Source: an uncultured Acidobacteriaceae bacterium
Lineage (GTDB): Bacteria; Acidobacteriota; Terriglobia; Terriglobales; Acidobacteriaceae
Length of the DNA: 64,000 nt
Direction: 5' to 3'
Assembly (NCBI GenBank): GCA_963710875.1
Contig: CAVQBW010000005.1
Location: 272,577 to 336,576, forward strand
Part shown: piece by piece, positions 27,109 to 53,450 of the stretch
Layout: every line of letters starts with the position of its first letter
Position numbering within the stretch: the stretch's first letter is position 1
Translations under genes and position numbers: made by a program
The notes under the pieces: model-generated
What the model saw: only the letters and a program-made list of their open reading frames with translations
Told to the model about the DNA's origin: nothing
Database searches by the model: none

Positions 27109-27516
27109 TTACTCGCCATGACACTCAAAGAAATTATTTTCGGTCTCTTCCACGCGCACATGCGCGAGTTCGCCGCCGGACAGCGCATCCTTCAACAACC
27201 CGAAGACTGCTCTGCAAAGATTCTCCGTCGTCGGCACCCGATTCACAAAGAGGGGATCGAGATTGAGGTTGGTGTGATCAAAACGGCCGATCACTTTTGT
27301 TCGTACAGTCTCATCCAGCGCAACCATGTCGACCACCATACCAGTCTCCGGATCGACCGTTCCGCCGACCAGCACCTCCACAATGTAGTTGTGCCCGTGG
27401 CCGCGGGGATTGTTGCATTTGCCGTAGGTTGTGCGGTTCTCTTCGTCCGAGAGCGCCTCGGTGTGCAGGCGGTGGCTGGCGGAGATCAAGTAGCGGCGTC
27501 CGAAGCTGGCTCTCAT
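27109..27516 (-). CDS. 6-pyruvoyl-tetrahydropterin synthase family protein, PTPS-II-type motif (copy B)
   Basis: GKCNNPRGHGHNY (Cx5HGH), FDH, PTTENL and C-terminal ETE. Confidence 0.9.
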   Translation of the reverse strand: MRASFGRRYLISASHRLHTEALSDEENRTTYGKCNNPRGHGHNYIVEVLVGGTVDPETGMVVDMVALDETVRTKVIGRFDHTNLNLDPLFVNRVPTTENLCRAVFGLLKDALSGGELAHVRVEETENNFFECHGE

Positions 27517-27974
27517 CGCTGACCTCGGTCGTCCACCCCACGAACGAAGACCTGTTCGTGGGGACCCCGGAATTCGGCGAAGATCTCCGGCGTCTCATAG
27601 ACGCGAATCCGGCTCAACTGCGCTCCGCCGGCGGCTGTCACTGCCGATTCCATGCGATTCCAGGCTGCGATGGCGAGATTCTCCGTGGTCGGAATCGCCG
27701 CGGCAAACTCGGGAACATCGAGATTCAGATTGCGATGGTCCCAGGCGTCGAGCACCTCTCGCTCCATCGCAGCCTTCAGCCACTTCAGATCGACGACGAA
27801 GCCGGTGACCGGGTCCGCTTCGCCAGCCACCGTGACCTCCAGCGTGTAGTTGTGCCCGTGTCCGTTGCGATTGGCGCAGCGGCCGAAGACCTGTTGATTC
27901 TTCTCCTCGGTCCACGCCGGGTTCCAATAGTAGTGCGAGGCTGAGAAGGTGGCCCGCCGCGTCAGGAAAATCAT
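27513..27974 (-). CDS. 6-pyruvoyl-tetrahydropterin synthase family protein, PTPS-II-type motif (copy A); C-terminus extended by a palindromic repeat
   Basis: GRCANRNGHGHNY (Cx5HGH), WDH, PTTENL and YET; start MIFLTRR with a GGGAGA RBS. Confidence 0.9.
   Translation of the reverse strand: MIFLTRRATFSASHYYWNPAWTEEKNQQVFGRCANRNGHGHNYTLEVTVAGEADPVTGFVVDLKWLKAAMEREVLDAWDHRNLNLDVPEFAAAIPTTENLAIAAWNRMESAVTAAGGAQLSRIRVYETPEIFAEFRGPHEQVFVRGVDDRGQR
27527..27568 (-). repeat. REP-like palindrome inside the 3' end of PTPS copy A
   Basis: Minus strand GGGGTCCCCACGAAC-AGGTCTTC-GTTCGTGGGGTGGACGACC; perfect 10-bp stem 27536-27545/27554-27563. Confidence 0.75.
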
Positions 27975-28026
27975 CTTTCTCCCTCGATGATTGGATGCTT
28001 CAGTCTCGGTCAAGGCTTCATGGGTT

Positions 28027-36689: not shown

Positions 36690-38021
36690 ATGCTGACCCC
36701 CGCACCTGAGACGCAGAAGCACGCGGCGAATGCGACGCGCCTCGTTCCGATTGGAATGGGTCTGCCCTTCGTTCTGGTCACGTCATTGTTTTTTCTCTGG
36801 GGCGTGCCCAACAACCTGAACGATGTGCTGATCCGGCAGTTCATGAAATCGTTTGCCATCTCGCGCTTTCAGGCGGGGCTTGTGCAGTCGGCGTTCTACC
36901 TGGGCTACTTTTTGCTGGCTGCGCCGGCCGCGTTGCTGATGCGCAGGTACGGGTACAAAGCCGGCTTCCTTGCCGGGCTATGCCTCCTGGGGACAGGGAC
37001 TCTGCTCTTCTGGCCGGCGGCCATTGTAGCGCGCTATTCCTTTTTCCTGTTTGCCCTGTTTGTCATCGCCAGCGGGCTCTCTCTTCTTGAGACCGCCGCA
37101 AACCCATTCATCGCGCAACTGGGAGATGGAGCGGGGGGCGCGCGGCGGCTCAATTTCTCGCAGGCATTCAATCCTCTGGGATCGATCCTCGGCGTTCTGG
37201 TGGGGACCATCTTCATCTTTTCAGGGGTGGAGCTGAACGAGCGGCAGATCGCGGCAATGCAGGCCGCGAATACTTACGAAGCATATCTTCGCCGCGAGAC
37301 GCTGCGCGTCGTTAATCCCTATCTGGTTCTTGGTGGGGTCGCATTTCTTCTTGCTTTTCTGATCTGGCGCACGAAGTTTCCCGTTGTCGCCGGCGAGGAG
37401 AGCACGGCAGAGGGCAACCACGGCCGCTTCCGCGATCTGCTGCGCTACCCGCACTTTCTCCTGGCCATTCTGGCGCAGTTTATGTATGTCGGCGCGCAGG
37501 TGGGCACATGGAGCTATTTCATCCAGTACGTGCAGGACTCGACTCATCAGCCGGAAAAGGTGGCGGGGTACTTTCTTACCGGAACGCTGGCGGCATTCGG
37601 AGTTGGACGCTTCTCTTCTTCGGCGCTTATGAAGTACGTGAAGCCCGGCCGTTTGATGGGACTCTACAGCGTGATCAACATCGCGCTGGTTGCAGTGGGC
37701 ATTCTGCATCCGGGATGGGTAGGGTTGTGGGCAATCTTTGCAACCAGTTTCTTCATGTCCGTGATGTACCCGACGATCTTCGCGCTGGGGATCGAGGGAT
37801 TGGGAAGGAATACCAAGATCGGCGGATCGCTCATTGTGATGGCAATCGTCGGCGGCGCGGTGCTCACGCCCGCCATGGGGCTGCTGTCGCAGTATACGCA
37901 CAGCATCGCCGATGCCTACGCGATTCCGCTCGTCTGCTATTTCTTTGTTGCCTTCTATGCTTTTATCGGTTGCAGAATAGGGCAGAAGAACAGCGCAAGC
38001 CTGATTGAGGAAAGCGTTTGA
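36690..38021 (+). CDS. fucP: L-fucose:H+ symporter (MFS)
   Basis: LFFLWG, LETAANP, RLNFSQAFN, YVGAQVG and MYPTIFAL motifs. Confidence 0.9.
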   Translation: MLTPAPETQKHAANATRLVPIGMGLPFVLVTSLFFLWGVPNNLNDVLIRQFMKSFAISRFQAGLVQSAFYLGYFLLAAPAALLMRRYGYKAGFLAGLCLLGTGTLLFWPAAIVARYSFFLFALFVIASGLSLLETAANPFIAQLGDGAGGARRLNFSQAFNPLGSILGVLVGTIFIFSGVELNERQIAAMQAANTYEAYLRRETLRVVNPYLVLGGVAFLLAFLIWRTKFPVVAGEESTAEGNHGRFRDLLRYPHFLLAILAQFMYVGAQVGTWSYFIQYVQDSTHQPEKVAGYFLTGTLAAFGVGRFSSSALMKYVKPGRLMGLYSVINIALVAVGILHPGWVGLWAIFATSFFMSVMYPTIFALGIEGLGRNTKIGGSLIVMAIVGGAVLTPAMGLLSQYTHSIADAYAIPLVCYFFVAFYAFIGCRIGQKNSASLIEESV

Positions 38022-38092
38022 TTGAGTACGATGAGGGTTACGCGGAGTATTCTCAATGCGACGAAAATAGAGAGCAATAACAGGATTCGATT

Positions 38093-38290
38093 ATGCGCAC
38101 ATCCCTTTTTATCACCTGCTATAACGACACACTTTTCCCCGAGACGGGCCGGGCGGTCGTGCGGCTGCTGGAGAGGCTGGACGTTGCACCTGAGTTTCTC
38201 CCCCAACAGACCTGCTGCGCCCAGATGCACGCCAACACCGGCTTCCGCGCTGAAGCCTTCTCCCAAGCAAGGCGGTTCGTCGGCCTCTAG
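38093..38290 (+). pseudogene. lutA: Truncated LutA/YkgE Fe-S (CCG-domain) protein
   Basis: SLFITCYNDTLFP...QTCCAQMHANTG is the N-terminus of LutA; TAG after 65 aa; no lutB or lutC follows. Confidence 0.8.
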
Positions 38291-38382
38291 GTGGAGAGTG
38301 CAGACGCTGATTCCAAGTTCTGTGCATACGAAAAAACGGAGCGCCAGCGCGCCCCGCTCTCTCCGCTCGAACCGCCCAGTCT

Positions 38383-39468
38383 TTAGTAGAGCCGGAAGTT
38401 GATTTCGACGTTGACCATCACCGGAACCGGGATCTTGCCGTCTTTCATCGCCGGCTTGAACTTGTACTTCATCACGGCTTCGAGAGCCTTTTGGTCCAGC
38501 CCCATGCCCAGCGGGCGCACCACGCGCGGATTCTGCGGATTGCCATGCGCATCCACGATGATCGAGACAATGCAGACGCCCTGATACTTGGCCCGCCGCG
38601 CCTCGTCGGAGAACTCCGCATCCGGCGAATACAGTGGGACGGGAGCGGAGACGCCGCCGCCCACGCTATAGAGCCCTCCGCCGTAGTTGCCGTCGGTTCC
38701 CGGTCCATAACCGTTGCCGTTTCCTGGCCCCATGCCGTCGCCATATCCGGTACCCATGCCGCCGCCGCCGCCCTGGCCGTTCGATGCGAGCTTGACGTTG
38801 ACAGAGTCCTTGAAACCAACGTTGGGCAGAGACATATCGTTCGGCAGCTTGATCTCCGGCTGCACATTGATAGCCGCTTCCACCGGCAGTTTAGGCTTGT
38901 CCAGCGCCTGCACCTGGGGAGGAGTGATCGGATCCTTCTCAAACTTGGGCAGCTTGCCTTTGCTGGGATCGATGATGCTGTGGTCGCCGCCACCCCCTCC
39001 GCCGCCTGCCTTTTTAGCAGCCTGGGGTCCCTTGAAGTCCCCCACATCGATGTCGGTCAAATTCAGCGGCAGCTTATTATTGGCGACGATCTGCTTGCCG
39101 ACAAAAAAGAGCGCAACCAGCAAGATTCCCACGTTGACCGTGCTGGCAATGCCCCAGGCCCAGGGGTTGCGTTTGACCGCCATCCGGTCCGGCACCGGAA
39201 TCGGCGTCGAGGTCAACTCCAGCGGAGGATAATGGGGCGGAAAAAAGACGTCGCGGATGCTCTCGTAGAGATCGACCCAGATGGGCCTTTCCTTGATGGG
39301 AATGCCGAAGCTGACATCAAGCTCAACGCCCCCCGCAGTGTCTGAGGCGGCTTGAGACTCCGAGTCGGGCTGGATGAGCAGGTCGTTTGCCATATCTGCG
39401 GATGGTTCCGTGGCCTCTGGACGCTTGGTTTGCCGGGGGATCGGAGGGGGCTCCATCTCCGGACTCAT
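38383..39468 (-). CDS. TonB-family energy transducer (TM, Pro/Gly-rich linker, TonB_C)
   Basis: YSDEARRAK-like FSDEARRAKYQG, LGMGLDQKALEAVMKYKFKPA and VEINFRLY; start reassigned to ATG 39468. Confidence 0.88.
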   Translation of the reverse strand: MSPEMEPPPIPRQTKRPEATEPSADMANDLLIQPDSESQAASDTAGGVELDVSFGIPIKERPIWVDLYESIRDVFFPPHYPPLELTSTPIPVPDRMAVKRNPWAWGIASTVNVGILLVALFFVGKQIVANNKLPLNLTDIDVGDFKGPQAAKKAGGGGGGGDHSIIDPSKGKLPKFEKDPITPPQVQALDKPKLPVEAAINVQPEIKLPNDMSLPNVGFKDSVNVKLASNGQGGGGGMGTGYGDGMGPGNGNGYGPGTDGNYGGGLYSVGGGVSAPVPLYSPDAEFSDEARRAKYQGVCIVSIIVDAHGNPQNPRVVRPLGMGLDQKALEAVMKYKFKPAMKDGKIPVPVMVNVEINFRLY

Positions 39469-39704
39469 GTCTCCATTATGCTTGACTCCGCCTGTTTGTG
39501 TCTTGTCCGGAAGGGACTCGCAATCCAGGCCCTCATATTCCGGCGCAGTCAGGCTTCCCATAAACAATAGACGGGGGTGCTTTGCAGTCGTTACCCTCGG
39601 CGGAGACAAAGAAAGCGGAAAAAAGAGGACTTCGCCCGGCCAATTGTCCTGCTGCCGCCTGCTCTCCCGCGCCTCTTTGCTTTGCCCGCCATTTACACTA
39701 AAGA

Positions 39705-42700
39705 ATGAATCAGATCGGGAGAACCCAGGAAGTGACGATGTCCCCAGTACCGGAGTTGAAGGCAACCCTTACTTTGCCGCAAACCGCCTTCCCAATGAAG
39801 GCGAATCTGCCCCAGAACGAACCGCTCCGGCTGGCCCGCTGGGCCTCGATGGGGCTCTATCACGAGCTGCGCAAGGCCGGCGCCGGCCGTCCCGCGTATC
39901 TTCTGCACGACGGCCCGCCCTACGCCAACGGTCCCATCCACCTGGGCCATGCGCTCAACAAGGGGCTCAAGGACTTTGTCGTCAAGTCGAAGACCATGGC
40001 CGGCTTCGATGCTCCTTACGTGCCCGGCTACGACTGCCACGGGCTGCCCATTGAGATCAAGGTGGACGAGCATCTGGGACGAAAAAAGCTGGAGATGCCT
40101 GTTCCTGCGGTTTTGGAGGCCTGCCGCGCCTACGCGCAGAAGTATGTGGACCTGCAAACCTCGCAGTTCGAGCGCATCGGCTGCTTTGGCCGCTGGGAAA
40201 AGCCCTACAAGACGATGGCCCGCGACTACGAGGCGCGCACCCTTGAAGCCTTTTACGGCTTTCTGGAAAAAGGCTTCGTCTATCGCGGCCTCAAGCCGGT
40301 CTACTGGTGCATCCACGACCGCACAGCCCTTGCCGAGGCCGAGGTCGAGTACGACCAGCACACCAGCCCTTCGATCTACGTCCGCTACCGGCTGACCTCG
40401 GACCCGGCAGCGATTCACCCGGCGCTTGCGGGTAAACAGGTCTCGACGATGATCTGGACCACCACCCCCTGGACGCTGCCGGCGTCGATGGCCGTGGCCT
40501 TCCATCCTGACTTTGATTATGTGGCGCTGGAAGTGAAATCCACGGCTGACGAGCGACAAACTCCGGGTGCCCCATCCTTTCCGCGTTCCTCAGCGGAATG
40601 GGCGGGAAACCATGAACCCGGACCGGTGTACATCGTCGCAGCCGAGTTGGCTACCCAGGTGATTGCGGCCTGCAAACTCGGAGAAGCCGCTGAACTTGCC
40701 CGCTTCAAAGGCAGCCAGTTCGACCGCGTCACCTTCCAGCATCCCTTTCTCGAGCGCTCGATCCTCGGCGTCAACGCCACCTATGTCACCGCCGACACGG
40801 GCACCGGCGCGGTCCATACCGCGCCGGCACACGGCGCGGACGACTTCTCAACCGGCCAGCGTTATGGCCTCGACCCCACCTGCCGCGTCGATGCGACCGG
40901 CCACATTCACTTTGATCCGAGCGCATGGAATCTTGCCTCACCCCCCGCCTTCGACGGCCTGAAGGTATGGGCCGCCAATCCGGTGATCCTGGCCATGCTC
41001 GAAGAGCGTAACGCGCTGCTGGCCGTGAGCGACCTGGAGCACTCCTACCCCCACTGCTGGCGCTGCCACAAGCCGGTCATCTACCGCGCCACCGAGCAGT
41101 GGTTCATCGGCATGGAGACGCCGGTCGAGCGTGCCGACGGCTCGGAGACGACCTTCCGCCAGTTGGCCATCGAGGAGATCGACAAGGTGGTTTGGGACCC
41201 AGCCTGGGGCAAGGAGCGCATCACCAACATGATCGCTACGCGCCCCGACTGGTGCATCAGCCGCCAGCGCATCTGGGGCGTGCCCATCGCTGTCTTCCTG
41301 TGCGAGGGCTGCCAGAAGCCGATCGCCGACCCGGCGCTCAACCGGCAGATCGTCGATCTCTTCGAGCGCGAAGGCGTCGAGGCGTGGCACACGACCGATG
41401 TCGCCAGCCTGCTCCCGGCGGGCGTTGCCTGCGCTCACTGCGGCGGCAAGAGCTTTCGCAAGGAGACCGACATTCTCGATGTCTGGTTCGACTCCGGCAC
41501 AAGCTGGTTTGCCGTCTGCGAGTCCGATGCGGAGTTGAAGCCCGCCTACACTTCTTTTCAAGAGAACGACGGCACGCAGGTTCTATACCTCGAAGGCGGC
41601 GATCAGCACCGTGGCTGGTTTCACTCCTCGCTGCTGACTTCGGTGGCTCTGCGCGGCCGCGCGCCCTACTCGCACGTCGCCACGGCAGGCTGGACGCTGG
41701 ACGAACAAGGCCGCGCGATGTCGAAGTCGCTCGGTAACGGCGTCGATCCGGTGGATATTGCCAACCGCATGGGCGGCGAGATCGTCCGGCTCTGGGTCGC
41801 CTCCGTCGACTTCCGCGAAGACATGGCGGCCAGCGAAAACCTGATGGCCCGCTGCGCCGAGATCTACAAGAAGCTGCGCAACACCTTCCGCTTCCTGCTG
41901 GGCAACCTCAACGGCTTCGATCCCGCGCGCGACCGCGTCGCCGAGGCCGATCTGCTGCCGCTCGACCGCTACATGCTGGCCCGCACACGCAAGCTGACCG
42001 AAGATATTCTCGACTGGTATGCCGCCTTCGAGTTCCATCGCGTCTACCACGCCGTGAACGAGTTCGCAATCGTGGACCTGAGTTCCTTCTATCTCGACGT
42101 GCTCAAGGACCGCATGTACACCTTCGCGCCCACCAGCCACGCCCGCCGCTCGGCGCAGACCGTGTTGTGGCAGATCACCGAGGCGCTGGTGCGGCTGGTC
42201 GCGCCGATCCTGAGCTTCACAGCCGATGAGGTCTGGGAACATCTACCCAAGGTCGAGGGCCGCGAGGCCAGCGTGCATCTGGCTCAATTCCCTGCCCCGG
42301 CTGAGATATTCCCTGAGGACCCGGCACCACTGCTGGAAGAGTGGCAGCAGCTTTTTGAAATTCGTGATCGCGTGCTGCGTTTGCTTGAAAGAGATCGCGA
42401 GGCAAAGGATATTGGCAAGGGCCTTGAGGCTGAGATTGAAATCACCACGTCGGGCGAAAAGTTTGCCCTTTTGCAGCGCCACGCCGAGGGCCTGAAGGAG
42501 ATATTCAATGTCTCAAAGGTCAACGTCGTCGACGGAATGCATCTTGTGGAACCGGACGACGAAGACGGAATTATATTGGGCCCTCAGGGAAGCCAACTGA
42601 GGAGGACCCAGATCAGGTCCGCGCCAGCGTCCGGCCACAAGTGCGCCCGCTGCTGGAACTTCATGCCAGAGGTCTCAAGCTACGGCATCTGGCAAAATGT

Positions 42701-42761
42701 CTGCACCCGCTGCCAGGATGCGCTCAGGGAAATGAAGATCGCTCCACCGGCCGCCACATAG
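39705..42761 (+). CDS. ileS: Isoleucine--tRNA ligase (type 1) with an in-frame repeat-derived insertion
   Basis: HLGH, WTTTPWTLP, DWCISRQR, AMSKSLGN and C-terminal CARC...CTRC Zn finger; alternative start 39738. Confidence 0.97.
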   Translation: MNQIGRTQEVTMSPVPELKATLTLPQTAFPMKANLPQNEPLRLARWASMGLYHELRKAGAGRPAYLLHDGPPYANGPIHLGHALNKGLKDFVVKSKTMAGFDAPYVPGYDCHGLPIEIKVDEHLGRKKLEMPVPAVLEACRAYAQKYVDLQTSQFERIGCFGRWEKPYKTMARDYEARTLEAFYGFLEKGFVYRGLKPVYWCIHDRTALAEAEVEYDQHTSPSIYVRYRLTSDPAAIHPALAGKQVSTMIWTTTPWTLPASMAVAFHPDFDYVALEVKSTADERQTPGAPSFPRSSAEWAGNHEPGPVYIVAAELATQVIAACKLGEAAELARFKGSQFDRVTFQHPFLERSILGVNATYVTADTGTGAVHTAPAHGADDFSTGQRYGLDPTCRVDATGHIHFDPSAWNLASPPAFDGLKVWAANPVILAMLEERNALLAVSDLEHSYPHCWRCHKPVIYRATEQWFIGMETPVERADGSETTFRQLAIEEIDKVVWDPAWGKERITNMIATRPDWCISRQRIWGVPIAVFLCEGCQKPIADPALNRQIVDLFEREGVEAWHTTDVASLLPAGVACAHCGGKSFRKETDILDVWFDSGTSWFAVCESDAELKPAYTSFQENDGTQVLYLEGGDQHRGWFHSSLLTSVALRGRAPYSHVATAGWTLDEQGRAMSKSLGNGVDPVDIANRMGGEIVRLWVASVDFREDMAASENLMARCAEIYKKLRNTFRFLLGNLNGFDPARDRVAEADLLPLDRYMLARTRKLTEDILDWYAAFEFHRVYHAVNEFAIVDLSSFYLDVLKDRMYTFAPTSHARRSAQTVLWQITEALVRLVAPILSFTADEVWEHLPKVEGREASVHLAQFPAPAEIFPEDPAPLLEEWQQLFEIRDRVLRLLERDREAKDIGKGLEAEIEITTSGEKFALLQRHAEGLKEIFNVSKVNVVDGMHLVEPDDEDGIILGPQGSQLRRTQIRSAPASGHKCARCWNFMPEVSSYGIWQNVCTRCQDALREMKIAPPAAT
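40565..40618 (+). repeat. REP-like palindromic element inserted in frame in ileS
   Basis: GGGTGCCCCATCCTTTCCGC-GTTCCTCA-GCGGAATGGGCGGGAAACCATGAACC (54 nt); ends shared with 42765-42810 and stem shared with 45050-45095. Confidence 0.85.
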
Positions 42762-42764
42762 CCT

Positions 42765-42810
42765 GGGTGCCCCCGGTCCCTAGCTTTTGGGGACCGGGGA
42801 TACCACGAAC
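42765..42810 (+). repeat. REP-like palindromic element between ileS and lspA
   Basis: GGGTGCCCC-CGGTCCC-TAGCTTTTG-GGGACCG-GGATACCACGAACC. Confidence 0.85.
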
Positions 42811-42838
42811 CTCAACTCTCCGTTCATAAAGGAACGAA

Positions 42839-43342
42839 ATGAAATTCGCCGCGCCCCGCCGTCTCCACTGGCTGCTGCTCATCTCCGCCGCGATCATCTT
42901 TCTTGACCGGCTGACCAAGACCTGGGTCACGCAGCACATCAAATACGGAGGCGCGATCCCGGTCATCCCTCACGTTCTGCGCATCACGCACTGGACCAAC
43001 GACGGCGCGGCTTTCTCGCTCTTTGCCGACTCGGCCAAGCCTCACCTGGTTCGTTGGGGGCTGGTGGGCTTTACCTCGCTGGCGGCGCTGGTGATTCTCA
43101 TCGTGTTGATCCGCATCGGCAATCGCATCACGCTGACTTCGGTCGCGCTGGCGCTGGTCTTTGCCGGCGCGCTGGGCAACGTTCACGACCGCATTGTCTA
43201 CGGCTCGGTGGTGGACTTCATCGAGGTCCACATCTTCAGCTATCACTTTCCCGACTTCAACATTGCCGACTCCTCGGTCTGCATCGGCGCATGCCTGCTG
43301 CTGATCGACTCGATCCGACCCAGGAAGAACCCAATCCAATAA
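42839..43342 (+). CDS. lspA: Lipoprotein signal peptidase II
   Basis: NDGAAFS, GALGNVHDR, VVDFI and FNIAD motifs; conserved ileS-lspA order. Confidence 0.96.
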   Translation: MKFAAPRRLHWLLLISAAIIFLDRLTKTWVTQHIKYGGAIPVIPHVLRITHWTNDGAAFSLFADSAKPHLVRWGLVGFTSLAALVILIVLIRIGNRITLTSVALALVFAGALGNVHDRIVYGSVVDFIEVHIFSYHFPDFNIADSSVCIGACLLLIDSIRPRKNPIQ

Positions 43343-43353
43343 CCGGACTACTC

Positions 43354-44058
43354 ATGCCGCAATTCCCTCCAGGCCAGACGCTGCTGATCGACGCCGACGA
43401 TACGCTGTGGGAGAACAATGTCTACTTCGAGCGCGCCATTGCGGCCTTTATCAGCTACCTCAACCACCACGAGTATTCGTCGGCCGAGGTGCGCCAGGCT
43501 CTGAACCAGATCGAGCGCGAGACGATCCTCGCCCACGGATACGGGCTGCCGAGTTTTACCCGCTCGCTGGTCACCTGCTTCGACCGGTTAAGCCCGGAGC
43601 CGGTCACCGAAGAGAAGGCCAAGCGTATCCTGGGCTTCGCCCGCTCGATCGCCGAGCAGGAGATCGAACTGCTGCCTGGCGTGGCCGAGACGCTGGCCGA
43701 GCTGGCCACGCGCCATCGGCTTATCCTGATGACCAAAGGCAACGAGGCCGAGCAGGTTGACAAGCTCTCTCGCTCCGGTCTGGAGAGTTACTTCTCCGTG
43801 GTCGAGATTGTGGCTGAAAAAGACGCGGCGAGTTACCGCGAAGTCATGCTTCGTTACGGGCTCGAGCCGCGAAGCAGTTGGATGATCGGCAACAGCCCCA
43901 GGAGCGACATCAACCCGGCTCTCGCCGCCGGCCTCAATGCCGTCTTTCTCTTTCACAAAGACACCTGGGTGCTGGAACACGCCACGCTCGACGCAGCGCC
44001 CGAAGGCCAGCAGTTAATTGAACGCGATGCCTTCGCGAAGCTCGCGGCTATCTTCTGA
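43354..44058 (+). CDS. HAD-superfamily hydrolase
   Basis: DADDTLWENN, TKGN, EKD and MIGNSPRSD motifs; start reassigned to ATG 43354. Confidence 0.9.
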   Translation: MPQFPPGQTLLIDADDTLWENNVYFERAIAAFISYLNHHEYSSAEVRQALNQIERETILAHGYGLPSFTRSLVTCFDRLSPEPVTEEKAKRILGFARSIAEQEIELLPGVAETLAELATRHRLILMTKGNEAEQVDKLSRSGLESYFSVVEIVAEKDAASYREVMLRYGLEPRSSWMIGNSPRSDINPALAAGLNAVFLFHKDTWVLEHATLDAAPEGQQLIERDAFAKLAAIF

Positions 44059-44081
44059 CTCTTTGGAATTTCTCGAATGAA

Positions 44082-44987
44082 TCAGCCTGCGCTTGACGCC
44101 GACAGTTTCATGTCTGCCAGCACCTGCTCCGGCGTCCACTCGTTGCCGGGATAGAAGCGCACGACCTTGCCATTGGGGCCGATCAGCGTCGTCGAAAGCG
44201 TGTGCGTGATCGTCGTATCCTCATTCACGGTCATTCCCAGGTCGAAGAATCTGGCCATCTCGACCAGCACCGGCTTCTCCGGCGCGGCAAACTCCCAATG
44301 CGCAAAGGCATTCTTCGCGTCGCTTCCGATATAACTCGCTCCATAGGCACGAAGCCGTTCGGGCGTGTCATGCTCCGGGTCAAAGCTGACCGAGAGCAGT
44401 TCGGTCTTGCCATAAAGCGCCGGATTGGCCGCCAACTCCTTCTCCAAAACAGCAAAGTTATGCGTCACCAGCGGGCAGAAGTTGGGCGATGGGCAGCGCG
44501 TGTAGATGAATGTGATCACCAGCGCACGCCCGCGAAACTGACCGAGATGAATCGCGCGGCCATCCTGGTTGCGCAGCTTGAAATCCGGCACCGAGTCGCC
44601 CAGAGCGGGCACATGGTAGAAAACCGGCGGCTTGTAATCCGGCTTGGCCTGCGCCACCACGACGATGTGGTCCAGAAGAATGTCGGCATCAGGGTCCTGC
44701 GAGACCAGCACGTCGGCGGTAATCACGTCGCCCGGATGCAGTTCGCTCAGGATTGCCGCATCCTTGAGCTTGTAGGGCATGGTCATCGCATCCATAAATC
44801 CGGGAATCGCCTCATGGTTCAGCGTGACTTCGCCCGTGGCGGCATCGGTGGAGACAACCTTGCCGCGCAGTTTGTAGACCTTGAAATGGTCGGCGGAGCT
44901 TTGCTGAGAGGGCGCGTTCTGGCTGGAGTGGCATCCAGACAGCACGAAGAGAGCGAGCAGCGAGCAAGCGATCAATCGACGCATCAC
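44082..44987 (-). CDS. CusF-like copper-binding domain fused to a SCO domain, lipoprotein
   Basis: LSGC lipobox, HEAIPGFMDAMTMPY, TRCPSPNFCP and distal His ITHTL; GTG 44987 lies 6 nt after TACACT. Confidence 0.85.
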   Translation of the reverse strand: MMRRLIACSLLALFVLSGCHSSQNAPSQQSSADHFKVYKLRGKVVSTDAATGEVTLNHEAIPGFMDAMTMPYKLKDAAILSELHPGDVITADVLVSQDPDADILLDHIVVVAQAKPDYKPPVFYHVPALGDSVPDFKLRNQDGRAIHLGQFRGRALVITFIYTRCPSPNFCPLVTHNFAVLEKELAANPALYGKTELLSVSFDPEHDTPERLRAYGASYIGSDAKNAFAHWEFAAPEKPVLVEMARFFDLGMTVNEDTTITHTLSTTLIGPNGKVVRFYPGNEWTPEQVLADMKLSASSAG

Positions 44988-45049
44988 ACGCTCAGTGTAC
45001 AACCACCTGCGGTGGGGCCCGTGTCCTTCAGCATCAAAAAATGAGCTGT

Positions 45050-45095
45050 TGGTCTCCAGCCCTTTCGCCAGAACAAGAGCGAAAGGATGGGGCGC
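45050..45095 (-). repeat. REP-like palindromic element, intergenic
   Basis: Minus strand GCGCCCCATCCTTTCGC-TCTTGTTCTG-GCGAAAGGGCTGGAGACC. Confidence 0.8.
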
Positions 45096-45099
45096 GGAA

Positions 45100-46208
45100 T
45101 CAGAGTGTGCGCTTAAAGAGCGAGGTTGCGATGAGCAGCGTGCCGATACCGAAAGTAAAGAGAAAGATCAGGTCAAACTCGATCGAAGCAAAGCCGCCAT
45201 CCTTGAGCAGGATGGATTTGAATCCGTGAATGCAGTACGTGAAGGGGTCCACGATAGCGATGGCGCGGAGCCATGTCGGGAACGCCTTGATGGGATAGAT
45301 GGCTCCCGAGGGGAAGAAGAGCAGCGTGTTGAGAACGCCGAACATGGCGCGTGGAACCAGCGGATCGTCAACGCGAACCATCATGAGAAACATCATGCCG
45401 TTGAATGCGATGGAGGTGCCCAAGATCAGCAGCAACAACTGAAGCATCGCCATGGGATGGAAGATCGTTCCCAGGCCGGCCATCAGCGAGCCGATGACGG
45501 TGAGCGATATGCCGGCGAGCACGGCTTTGATGGAGCCGGCTATATTGAGGCCCATCACCAGTTCGAGCTTGGTGATGGGCGTAACGAGATAGCCCTCGTG
45601 AACGCCGCGGGCCTTGTCGTCGATGTACAGCATCCCGCCGCCGATCATGACCGAGATATACATGGCCAGGGCGATCGATCCCGAGAGCAGGTACTTCATG
45701 TATTCGACAAAGGGGTAGAGTTCGACGATCTGGAGCGCAATGTTCTTGACGACGCGATCCTGGATGACCGGGGCGTTGAGCGCGTCGATCAGCGACTGCA
45801 TCTCGGCCTCGATGCTGCCGCTCATGAACTGATCGGAGTTGTCTACGACGAGGCCTATCTTCGGCGCGTCCTGGGCATAGACGCGGCGCGAGTATTGCGC
45901 GGGAATGATGACGGCGGCGTCCAGCTTGCCGGTGCGCACATCTTCGCGGGCCAGGCGCTGGTCGGCGTAGTCAACCGTGGTAAAGGTGTCGATGTTGGCG
46001 GCGATGGCGGCAAAGGCCTCGCGGATTTTGACCGCCTGAGGGCCGTGGTCGTAGTCCACCACAGCGACCCGGGCACCGCGAATCTTTCCCCCGAAGGCGT
46101 TGCCCAGAATAACGAGCTGCACCAGGGGAAGCATCATGGACATGATCATCAGGACCGGCGAGCGGAAAAATTTGCGCATCTCGCGCTCGACGATGGCGAG
46201 CATTCTGT

Positions 46209-46212
<4 letters not shown>
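45100..46212 (-). CDS. ABC-2 type exporter permease (YbhS/R-like)
   Basis: REMRKFFR, periplasmic domain, six TMs and DPFTY motif; start at MNRMLA. Confidence 0.9.
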
Positions 46213-47251
<1,039 letters not shown>

Positions 47252-47255
<4 letters not shown>

Positions 47256-48319
47256 TGCTTCACCAGCTTGCTTTTGGGGATATAGACCTCGGCGGTCATG
47301 CCAGGGACAAAGCGTTCGTCCGGGTTGGGGATAAGCAATTTGATCTGTACGGTCTCGATGTCGCGCTTGCGGCCGCCGTTGATGTCGCGCTGCGTGGCGA
47401 AATCGGCCTCGGAAGCCTTCGAAATGACTTGACCCCAGACGGTTGCTCCCGAAGGCATCACGACGCGCAGGCTGTCGCCAAGTTTCACTGAGTCGGCCTC
47501 GGTTTCGGGCAGCGGCGCGTAGACCCAGGTCTGGGTCAAATCCATCACGGTGACGATGGTTCCTCCAGCCGGAAGGACTTCGCCCTGGCGAGCGGCGAGC
47601 ACGTTGACCCGGCCGCTGAGCGGCGCGTAGACCTTCGCGTAGCCCAGCTCCACCTGGGCCTGTTCGGCCAGCGCGCGGGCGTTTGCGACGTCGGCGCGGG
47701 TAGAGTTCACGGTGCGCGCCGAAGCCGCGGCGAGCAGCTCATGGGCGCGGGCCTGGCGAAGGCTCGCCTGGGCCGCGGCCAGGCTCTCGCGCGCCGCGTC
47801 CTCGGCGGACTTGGAGGCTTGCAGGCTGGTGACCGCCTCGTCCTTGGCCTGTTCGCTCATGATGCCTTGCTTGGCCAACGCGACAGTCCGGCTGGTGTCG
47901 GCCTGCTGGTGCGCGTAGTTGGCCTTGGCCTCGGCCAGCGAGGCTTGCGAGGCCTTGACCTGCGCTTCGGCGTTGAGCGTGGCGCTCGAGGTTTCGCCGC
48001 GGTTCTGGCGCTCGGTCTCCACCGATTCGCCCAGCTTCCACTGGTCGCTGGAAACGGTCGCCTGGGCGGCTTGGTGCGCGGCGGCGAGATCGGCGCTCTC
48101 GATGACCGCGACGAGTTGGCCTTCCTTCACTTCCTGCCCTTCGTCGACCGCCAGCGTCTGAACGCGGCCCGGAATCTTGCTGCTCACCAGCACCTCATTG
48201 GCATCCACAGTGCCGATCAGCTTCAGTTCGCCTGATGTCCGCGCGGTGAACACATACCAGATGAACGACCCCACAGTCAAAATGCCCAATATGAGAAAAA
48301 CTCGATTGCGTGCGTTCAT
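47252..48319 (-). CDS. HlyD-family membrane fusion protein (YbhG-like)
   Basis: N-terminal TM, lipoyl-like VSSKIPGRV..VDEGQ, coiled coil and PGMTAEV. Confidence 0.92.
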
Positions 48320-51865: not shown

Positions 51866-52046
51866 TGTACAGCCTCCTTGACGAACGACCGAGACCCAGG
51901 CGCAGTATGCAGGTAAGTTAGTGAAAAAACGGGAAGATTCCGGTGAAGAAACCAACAAAACAGCGGAAGAACCCGGAAGCATAAGCGACGCCCTTTTCGA
52001 GTGGGCGGCAACGGTCCGCCCAGGTCGGAGTTGTTACACTGGCTCC

Positions 52047-52370
52047 ATGATGGACGAACTGGAGTTCCGCAGTCTGGCCGAAATAGCTCTCAGCTCGCTG
52101 AAGCAGCATTTGATTTTGCGCGAGGAAGAGGCGGAGGCCGGTTTTGAAGTAGAGGAACAGGGCGGCGTATTAAATGTCGAGTTCGAGGAGCCGCCGGGCA
52201 AGTTTGTGATTACGCCCAACACGCCGGTGCGCCAGATCTGGATTTCGGCGCTTTCAACCAGCTTCAAGCTCGACTGGAATCAGGCGGCCTCGGCGTTTAT
52301 CCTGCCGCGCACGGGCGAGCATCTTGTGGCCCTGGTTGACCGGCTGATTGAGGAACGCCTGGAGGGGTAG
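52047..52370 (+). CDS. cyaY: Frataxin-like iron donor protein
   Basis: FEVEEQGGVLNVEF, VITPNTPVRQIWIS acidic frataxin pattern; ATG 6 nt after TACACT. Confidence 0.85.
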   Translation: MMDELEFRSLAEIALSSLKQHLILREEEAEAGFEVEEQGGVLNVEFEEPPGKFVITPNTPVRQIWISALSTSFKLDWNQAASAFILPRTGEHLVALVDRLIEERLEG

Positions 52371-52378
52371 CAAGCAAA

Positions 52379-52432
52379 GCGAAACCCCGCCCTCGCCGCA
52401 ATCACAACGATGCGGAGATGGTGGGGTTTCGC
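52379..52432. terminator. Long hairpin between convergent cyaY and pstS (bidirectional terminator or REP variant)
   Basis: GCGAAACCCC...GGGGTTTCGC outer stem with an inner CCGCA/TGCGG stem. Confidence 0.65.
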
Positions 52433-52448: not shown

Positions 52449-53450
52449 CTACTGCAGCGAATAGACGGTCTTCAGTACCTTTTCCGCCACATTATCAGGC
52501 AGCGGCGCATAGGAGAGAGCGGAGACTTCGCTCTCGCCCGACTTGACGATCCAGCTCAGCAGATCCTTGAGAACCTTGCCCTTCACCGGATCGGCGGCAT
52601 GAATGGGAATCAGCAGATAGGTGAAGCTGGAGATGGGATAGGAGCCAGCGCCGGGAGCGTTGGTGATCGAGACACGGTAGTCGGCGGGCATATCCTTCAC
52701 GTTGGCAGCCGCCTCGGTGACGCCACTGATAGAGGCCTTCAACCAGTTACCCGCGGCATTCTGCACTTCGCCGTAGCTCATATTGTTTTGCAGGGCATAG
52801 ATCAACTCGACATAGCCGACTGCGCCAGGCAACTGGCGAACCAGGCCGGCCACGCCCTCATTGCCTTTGCCGCCAACCCCGACCGGCCAACTGGGCGAGG
52901 TGCCTTTGCTGGGGCCGCTGGCCCACTCTTTACTCACCTTGCTCAGGAAGTCGGTCCAGATGAAGCTGGTGCCGCTGCCGTCCGAACGATGAACGACGAT
53001 GATCTTCTGGTCGGGCAGCTTCACGCCGGGGTTGTCCTTGGCGATGCGCGCATCGTTCCAGTTGTTGACCTTGCCCAGGTAGATATCGGCCAGCAGCTCA
53101 CCGCTGAACCTGAGATCGTTGACGCCGGGAACATTGAAGACAGGCACAACAGCTCCCAGCACGGTGGGAATGTGGATCAGCTTGACCTTGGAACTGGCGA
53201 GCATCTCGTCGGTCATGGGCATGTCGGAGGCGCCGAAGTCCACAAGGCCTGAGGTGACCTGGCGGATGCCGCCGCCAGAGCCGATCGACTGGTAGTTGAT
53301 CTCGACGCCGGGATGGGCGGCGCTATACTCGCTGAACCACTTCGAGTAGATCGGGTAGGGGAAAGTCGCACCCGCTGCGGTCAATTTCTGAGCCTGAGCC
53401 GTGCTCAAGGCCAACAACGACAACACTAAAGCAACCAGAATCTTTTTCAC
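52449..53450 (-). CDS. pstS: Phosphate ABC transporter substrate-binding protein
   Basis: AGATFPYP, YQSIGSGGG, DFGASD, RSDGSGT and GNEGV motifs. Confidence 0.95.
   Translation of the reverse strand: MKKILVALVLSLLALSTAQAQKLTAAGATFPYPIYSKWFSEYSAAHPGVEINYQSIGSGGGIRQVTSGLVDFGASDMPMTDEMLASSKVKLIHIPTVLGAVVPVFNVPGVNDLRFSGELLADIYLGKVNNWNDARIAKDNPGVKLPDQKIIVVHRSDGSGTSFIWTDFLSKVSKEWASGPSKGTSPSWPVGVGGKGNEGVAGLVRQLPGAVGYVELIYALQNNMSYGEVQNAAGNWLKASISGVTEAAANVKDMPADYRVSITNAPGAGSYPISSFTYLLIPIHAADPVKGKVLKDLLSWIVKSGESEVSALSYAPLPDNVAEKVLKTVYSLQ

Follow-up and report, generated by a model that had tools for sequence, protein, structure and literature searches.

Repetitive extragenic palindromes (REPs) occur mostly outside genes, with a minority lying wholly within known open reading frames (ORFs), where they encode 20-30 residues, occur as singles or dimers, and are sometimes found twice in one gene (Di Nocera et al. 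2013, PMC3733652). The tRNA synthetase genes of Xanthomonas oryzae, Erythrobacter, and Sphingopyxis are among the targets, some of the intragenic REPs were equated by those authors with the Rickettsia palindromic elements (RPEs) RPE-4 and RPE-6, and the GTAG REPs were linked to genes for REP-associated tyrosine transposases (RAYTs) (PMC3733652). Intragenic REPs and RPEs are already known, tRNA synthetase genes included. Here, we describe a REP copy that is read in frame within ileS, the gene for isoleucyl-tRNA synthetase (IleRS), in an uncultured Acidobacteriaceae bacterium. The stretch of DNA that we analyzed, the window, is 64,000 nt long and corresponds to C5:272577-336576 of the 4.87-Mb genome; C, G, and L numbers are our handles for contigs, genomes, and loci.

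The ileS element resembles the intragenic REPs with a GTAG/CGTC tag in being a short palindrome, in having a minority of its copies in ORFs, and in targeting a tRNA synthetase gene. It differs from them in its head, GGGTGCCCCA, in the absence of the tag at the stem foot, and in its acidobacterial host; among acidobacteria, the survey mentions only Koribacter, for terminal inverted repeat sequences (PMC3733652). With the RPEs, the element shares the character of an in-frame palindromic repeat in an essential gene, undisruptive and read as extra peptide, whereas here a cognate RAYT gene is present and ∼97% of the copies are extragenic. RPE-1 is also longer, at roughly 100-150 bp, and belongs to reduced intracellular genomes. 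As in the REPIN/RAYT systems of Pseudomonas and Enterobacteria, the REPs here are present in high copy number, form clusters and inverted doublets, flank a RAYT gene in inverted orientation, and belong to a family that is vertically inherited and widespread in the taxonomic family. Unlike those systems, this one keeps its head and tail fixed, and its stem comes in several interchangeable classes within a single genome. Our literature searches found nothing on REPs within Acidobacteriaceae coding sequences, and the new details are this family, its host lineage, the multi-insertion hotspot in the CP1 editing domain of IleRS, and the covariation of a hairpin within an ORF.

A REP copy in the editing domain of IleRS

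The ORF that carries the element (Table 1) encodes IleRS, with a Pfam tRNA-synt_1 match at 1.3e-117 and an anticodon-binding domain; its best solved relative is chain 8c9e_A, "Isoleucine--tRNA ligase" (9.6e-248). The alignment to this chain falls into two stretches, query 17-277 with chain 2-257 and query 306-1009 with chain 259-916, so that ∼27 IleRS residues are left without a counterpart. The gap lies in CP1, ∼20 residues past the WTTTPWT motif. The loop at this position is 33 residues long here versus 6-7 in insert-free relatives and the outgroup, a net gain of ∼26 residues.

The extra residues are encoded by a member of a repeat family, which we scored in the window with filters off, using a covariance model (CM R1) built from a 22-copy alignment. 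The conserved core of the ileS copy spans 40565-40612 and its tail reaches ∼40628, giving a conserved stretch from head to tail of ∼40563-40628. The hairpin within it has two mismatches (T.T and A.C) relative to perfect copies and a fold z-score of -2.0. Two instances of the pattern GGGTGCCCC-N(15-45)-GGGANACCA are present in the window, at 40565-40612 and 42765-42805, with none expected from shuffles. We regard chance resemblance or an assembly artefact as refuted, given the E-value of 1.6e-16, the zero matches in shuffles, and the recurrence of the insert in >100 independently assembled IleRS genes.

These results bear out the first-pass annotation of this DNA, made from the letters alone, in placing a REP-like palindrome in frame within the IleRS editing domain, in counting about 25 extra residues (about 26-27 by loop lengths and the 8c9e alignment), and in matching the ends of the element to a copy at 42765, where the pattern recurs and the CM scores 60.5 bits. 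The similarity to intergenic copies, on which that proposal turned, is significant. Two of its details need amendment. The palindrome is real, but the conserved stretch is longer than the 54 nt assigned to it; and the stem does resemble that of a copy near 45050, but this copy (45033-45100) is degenerate, with decayed flanks and an E-value of 0.038.

The inserted loop peptide, GAPSFPRSSAEWAGNHEP, is Gly/Pro/Ser-rich and probably disordered, and one predicted tryptic peptide that spans it starts SSAEWAGNHEPGPVYIV. An AlphaFold2 (AF2) model of IleRS, made with 38 close homologues, has a mean predicted local distance difference test (pLDDT) value of 51, which is too weak for fold comparison or distances. 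CP1 reaches block means of 72-90 in this model (residues 221-280 and 311-360), and it shows residues 280-305 as coil (pLDDT <50), bounded by strands 271-277 and 308-312. The model suggests that the insert is a disordered excursion at a β-hairpin turn of CP1, and the PDB alignment agrees. Other matches to the window IleRS in its own genome reach at most 36% identity with partial query coverage; as there is no second close IleRS, the insert-bearing enzyme would have to be the working one.

The alignment of IleS orthologues that the first-pass annotation had proposed shows the insert to be present in some relatives and absent in others. We searched 40 related genomes and took the loop between DF(D/E)YVA and VYIVA from 30 fetched loci. 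The loop has 7 residues in all seven genomes of the outgroup, a neighboring family. Among 21 genomes of the same genus, it has 6-7 residues in eight, 10-16 in seven, and 26-57, REP-derived, in six, including this one. Some of the 10-16-residue loops, for example, LATAGAPGRSGP, look like deletion remnants. The REP-derived loops contain one element in this genome, one GGTCC-class element each in G013 and G019, and two elements each in G009, G003, and G002; the insert DNA of these five relatives matches the REP model with E-values of 7.7e-13 to 2.7e-4. Altogether, Terracidiphilus-like genomes have 0, 1, 2, or 3 REP-derived segments at the same loop. When the loop is masked, the IleRS tree shows a scattered REP state that takes 5 changes to explain; well-supported branches force at least 4 of these, and the sequence nearest to the window IleRS, that of G018, is without the insert.

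A database search seeded on the insert region returned >100 distinct IleRS with 1-3 REP-derived segments and loops of 26-80 residues; the nearest metagenomic IleRS proteins bear the NCBI name "Terracidiphilus sp." An element of the ATCC(T/A)T(T/G)CCGC stem class came first and is shared widely, and GGTCC-class elements came later, upstream or downstream of it. With 0-3 elements across relatives and loops of up to 80 residues, the IleRS CP1 loop is, judged by these sequences, a long-standing insertion hotspot.

We considered whether selection at the protein level keeps the inserted peptide as an adaptive part of the editing domain, for example, as a new contact for tRNA or a partner. Among 24 distinct 33-residue versions, the REP part has a mean pairwise identity of 69%, compared to 49% for the adjacent linker, which speaks for such selection; however, these versions were chosen by similarity to the insert, and the value is below the 77-86% of the enzyme core. 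Moreover, close relatives lack the segment or have it truncated, doubled, or tripled, the AF2 model predicts disorder for it, and the same peptide frame is found in unrelated enzymes. An adaptive role of the peptide is very unlikely.

The intergenic copy downstream of ileS (42760-42825) begins 3 nt past the stop codon. A REP just past this stop codon is also present in several relatives (L135:3246-3323, L138:3252-3328, L139:3241-3310, and L142:3250-3335), and its position in the ileS-lspA spacer is conserved, as is typical of REPs downstream of genes. An Rfam scan of window positions 38000-48000, which contain all three window copies, matched no known RNA family. Further along, a GC-rich hairpin at 52386-52425 between convergent ORFs (51921-52370 on the plus strand and 52449-53450 on the minus strand) shows a marginal match to the REP stem (E=0.09) and may be either a terminator or a strongly decayed REP.

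Table 1. Positions of the ileS insert, the other REP copies of the window (window numbering), and coding and candidate coding copies elsewhere in the genome (contig numbering)
Feature	Position	Strand	Basis or remark
ileS, isoleucyl-tRNA synthetase, 1018 aa	39705..42761	+	Pfam and PDB matches
Variable CP1 editing-domain loop, residues 275-307, 33 aa	40527..40625	+	PDB alignment, orthologue loops
REP copy in ileS, sense orientation, read as ...TPGAPSFPRSSAEWAGNHEPGP...	40560..40632	+	CM R1 66.2 bits, E=1.6e-16; alignment to 21 other copies
ileS hairpin, arms 40566-40584 / 40593-40611, 8-nt loop	40566..40611	+	Imperfect palindrome
Intergenic REP of another stem class (GGTCCC), ileS-lspA spacer	42760..42825	+	CM 60.5 bits, E=5.8e-15
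Degenerate intergenic REP	45033..45100	-	CM 14.3 bits, E=0.038; nhmmer 7.6e-5
Oligopeptidase, ptrB-like, Peptidase_S9_N + S9	C2:567995-570214		In-frame coding copy
IspE	C6:91268-92470		Two inverted coding copies in a loop
GlcD/FeS oxidase			In-frame coding copy in Fer4-CCG domain linker
PTPS_related (PF10131) membrane protein	Contig C1		Weak match; probable coding copy
UDG frame	C5:510671		Ambiguous; copy precedes residue 111, the start of homology to solved UDGs
Open frame without Pfam match	C5:111552-113168		REP in frame; uncertain

The REP family, its RAYT gene, and other coding copies

All members share one layout, with the head described above, a variable complementary stem, and the tail TGGGANACCACGAACC. 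In the 22-copy alignment, the head GGGTGCCCC(A) is invariant and the tail TGGGANACCA(C/T)GAACC(ccaacc) is conserved, while the stem and loop vary in both sequence and length and fall into several stem classes. RNAalifold predicts for this alignment an 11-pair helix with a 2x2 internal loop, in which 5 pairs carry compensatory changes. The exact pattern GGGTGCCCC-N-GGGANACCA has 55 copies in the genome, with cores of 38-64 nt, mostly 38-53 nt. A flank pattern that allowed one mismatch per flank gave 158 matches versus 52 in a shuffled genome and was too unspecific; we therefore used the CM and a profile hidden Markov model instead. The former yields at least 150 significant matches, and the latter (nhmmer) yields 243 at E<1e-3 on six of the seven contigs, the set of copies to which the extragenic share given above refers. 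In a sample of 101 genomes from across this taxonomic family, 52 had matches at E<=1e-5.

Eleven Y1_Tnp matches were found in the genome. The ORF at C5:429540-430076 (L079:1541-2077) matches NCBIfam NF047646, "REP-associated tyrosine transposase," with 106.9 bits against a cut-off of 80, and among solved structures its best match is E. coli TnpA-REP (4er8). One REP (L079:1418-1485, plus strand) lies 56 nt upstream of this ORF, and another (L079:2033-2106, minus strand) overlaps its 3' end. A RAYT gene between inverted REPs is the classical arrangement, and these inverted family copies around a gene that passes the NF047646 cut-off identify a REP/RAYT system, which has a stem-loop palindrome and a high, dispersed, and mostly extragenic copy number. 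The RAYT presumably mobilizes the REP. In the 22-copy alignment, with head GGGTGCCCC and tail GGGANACCA, the stem foot lacks a GTAG or CGTC tetranucleotide tag on both strands, and for this reason we file the family in neither REP super-family of PMC3733652.

Tandem clusters similar to bacterial interspersed mosaic elements are present at C1:684845-685595 (at least 7 copies with ∼89-bp spacing) and C2:11897-12112 (three copies with 82-bp spacing). A group of CM matches that share a score of 44.1 bits was considered as an insertion sequence-borne source of REPs and rejected; the 14 that we inspected belong to a separate MITE, or miniature inverted-repeat transposable element. This MITE is ∼118 bp long and has at least 14 identical copies (e.g., C1:158530-158650, C1:385090-385210, and C5:34600-34720, all outside the window), with terminal inverted repeats GGTCTTTGACCG/CGGTCAGAGACC and a REP-like hairpin in its center. 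It is flanked on both sides by CTAG, probably a target duplication, and one copy sits inside a GGTCC-class REP.

The genome-wide scan for coding copies suggested in the first-pass annotation was run on heuristic gene calls, using a codon log-odds score trained on long ORFs and asking that the frame on either side of the REP be open and resemble coding sequence. Eight of the 243 copies passed, and ∼6 of these lie in genes verified by Pfam and PDB checks. The expectation that other proteins are affected was correct, with in-frame copies in an oligopeptidase, IspE, and the GlcD/FeS oxidase. The REP segment of the oligopeptidase is missing from most orthologues. The IspE loop measures ∼55 residues here versus 15 in PDB 4dxl in the same alignment, and 29-67 between flanking motifs across the genus. 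IleRS, the oligopeptidase, and IspE each combine an intact ORF and a preserved frame with absence of the segment from orthologues, as RPEs do. Several further stop-to-stop frames that span a REP (a cytochrome c, a PDZ protein, a DUF190 protein, and a TolC-like outer membrane efflux protein) were not counted because the REP lies upstream of the first Pfam domain, probably before the true start.

Five of six verified coding copies are in the sense orientation. Translation of the head gives (Q)T(L/P)GAPS(F/L) and that of the tail, in most, VG(N/D)xEP; the remaining frames of the REP consensus read as hydrophobic, Cys-containing peptides. This shared orientation, the "GAPS" frame, and the position in a presumed surface loop or a linker look like a survival filter rather than targeted insertion. 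Two side observations concern these loci. G018, which has no IleRS insert, carries two REP segments of two stem classes at the oligopeptidase site (L090, G018:C3:53076-56423), where this genome has one. In G021 and G019 (L127 and L131), the IspE loop contains another segment that looks repeated, GAPxPALSLSKGLDFETW, and that may derive from a different palindromic element family.

The second coding hit that the first-pass annotation had placed in the PTPS gene of the window did not hold up. No REP match was found in this gene (27513-28013, minus strand) with nhmmer --max or, at E<=10, with CM R1 with filters off. Its palindrome shares with the REP tail only CCACGAAC. Homology to solved PTPS stops at residue 150, and the palindrome is in the 16-residue C-terminal tail beyond. 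We note that this palindrome is a perfect one of 10 bp (27536-27563, minus strand; CCCCACGAAC / GTTCGTGGGG with an 8-nt spacer) and that it lies just before the start of a second PTPS paralogue (27109-27516).

Retention of the hairpin inside ileS

We compared the hairpins of 12 ileS-internal copies, taken from eight metagenomic ileS genes and from this genome, G009, G003, and G002. Across these 12 species, standard pairs make up 92.6% of the cells of the 17-pair stem, compared with 38-48% after sliding the partner by 1-3 columns, and at 6 of the 17 pairs both sides have changed (15 cells). The covariation score, 0.231 versus 0.074 in shuffles, was reached by 0 of 500, although kinship among the sequences inflates such shuffle tests. 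In the protein, the covariation appears as residue pairs (I-W, F-R, L-R, and M-W) whose states have switched ∼20 times according to a tree of 109 IleRS, and mismatched intermediates are nearly absent; the window copy, F-W, is in a mismatched state. One compensatory stem pair couples a synonymous change in a Pro codon to a Val-to-Ala change, an indication that the constraint or bias acts on the nucleic acid rather than on the protein. The 8-nt hairpin loop (YTCYTCAG-like) is similar in ileS copies across species and occurs in no other copy of this genome, which argues for one orthologous insert evolving in place, not repeated replacement.

The same observations could mean that the hairpin itself is selected as a nucleic-acid element, such as an mRNA decay or pausing structure or a RAYT/single-stranded DNA site, with the peptide as the price paid. 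The pairing, the compensated changes, the silent Pro partner, the rarity of mismatched intermediates, and the ileS-only loop all lend this idea weight. On the other hand, the segment has been lost in many close relatives with no sign of harm, the hairpin is decaying in the window copy (2 mismatches) and in G002 (∼4), and the fold z-score is a modest one. Quasipalindrome template-switch correction during replication, known from E. coli genetics, can produce concerted arm changes without selection; it would account for the changes seen here, for which it is a candidate mechanism only. Selection on the hairpin is, in our estimate, rather unlikely.

Alternatively, the stem variants at the IleRS site might reflect repeated independent insertion or replacement by different REPs, through RAYT or gene conversion. 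The same stem variants, for example, ATCCATTCCGC and ATCCTTGCCGC, occur as intergenic copies in this genome, REPs adjoin one another elsewhere in it, and the GGTCC-type stem class is clearly a separate arrival, now upstream and now downstream of the first element. Yet the ileS-specific loop and the upstream linker NPTPxEPQTL are kept across stem variants, and replacement of the whole element would lose both. We find this explanation of the variants doubtful; as the cause of retention, either template-switch correction or weak selection on nucleic-acid structure seems likelier to us.

A broader form of the idea is that the ileS hairpin, and perhaps those of ispE and the oligopeptidase, are actively maintained as nucleic-acid structures within ORFs over genus-level time, either by selection (for an mRNA or single-stranded DNA function, or as a substrate for seamless RAYT excision and re-insertion) or by a strong hairpin-templated repair bias. 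We put this forward tentatively and think the odds are against it. If true, RAYT excision and re-insertion would make the length of a protein loop switchable, and the insert would be a natural case of DNA or RNA structure dictating covarying amino-acid pairs.

History and significance of the insert

Taken together, we consider it highly probable that a RAYT-linked REP copy inserted in frame into the IleRS CP1 loop, that it is translated and tolerated, and that the insertion is old and was later partly lost or augmented. In this proposed history, an Acidobacteriaceae lineage would maintain the REP family together with RAYT genes, and one REP, of a length that preserves the frame, would have inserted into the β-hairpin turn of CP1 in the sense orientation, where it would be translated as a Gly/Pro/Ser-rich loop that the enzyme tolerates. 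The insertion would be old because it is common to many Terracidiphilus-like species. Some lineages would then have deleted the insert, partly or wholly, and elsewhere REPs of another stem class may have landed beside the first, much as REPs cluster in intergenic DNA. The peptide is probably neutral and the loop probably surface-exposed.

Several points weigh against this history. The AF2 model is too poor overall to establish how exposed the loop is or how far it lies from the editing site. Upstream of the REP, ∼10 further extra residues (KSTADERQT) lie outside the REP model. The relatives offer no pair of empty and filled sites close enough to show where the insert begins and ends or what target sequence it used. 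Finally, long-term retention of the hairpin with compensatory changes is unlike a purely neutral passenger.

The first-pass annotation had proposed an RPE-like, protein-remodeling repeat system in this lineage. The core of that proposal, RPE-like in-frame insertion of a repeat, is confirmed for IleRS and other proteins. The purpose implied by "protein-remodeling" is not, as the scattered presence and absence of the insert and its partly deleted remnants fit tolerated passengers in permissive loops better than adaptive remodeling.

Our results have several consequences. The compensatory stem changes within an ORF provide a natural data set that could separate nucleic-acid selection from template-switch repair. 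For annotation and phylogenetics, REP-derived segments may pass as lineage-specific protein motifs. The IleRS editing domain has a permissive site that takes from 0 to ∼70 extra residues, and REP/RAYT elements can add loops to essential enzymes in free-living soil Acidobacteriaceae, beyond Rickettsia or Proteobacteria.

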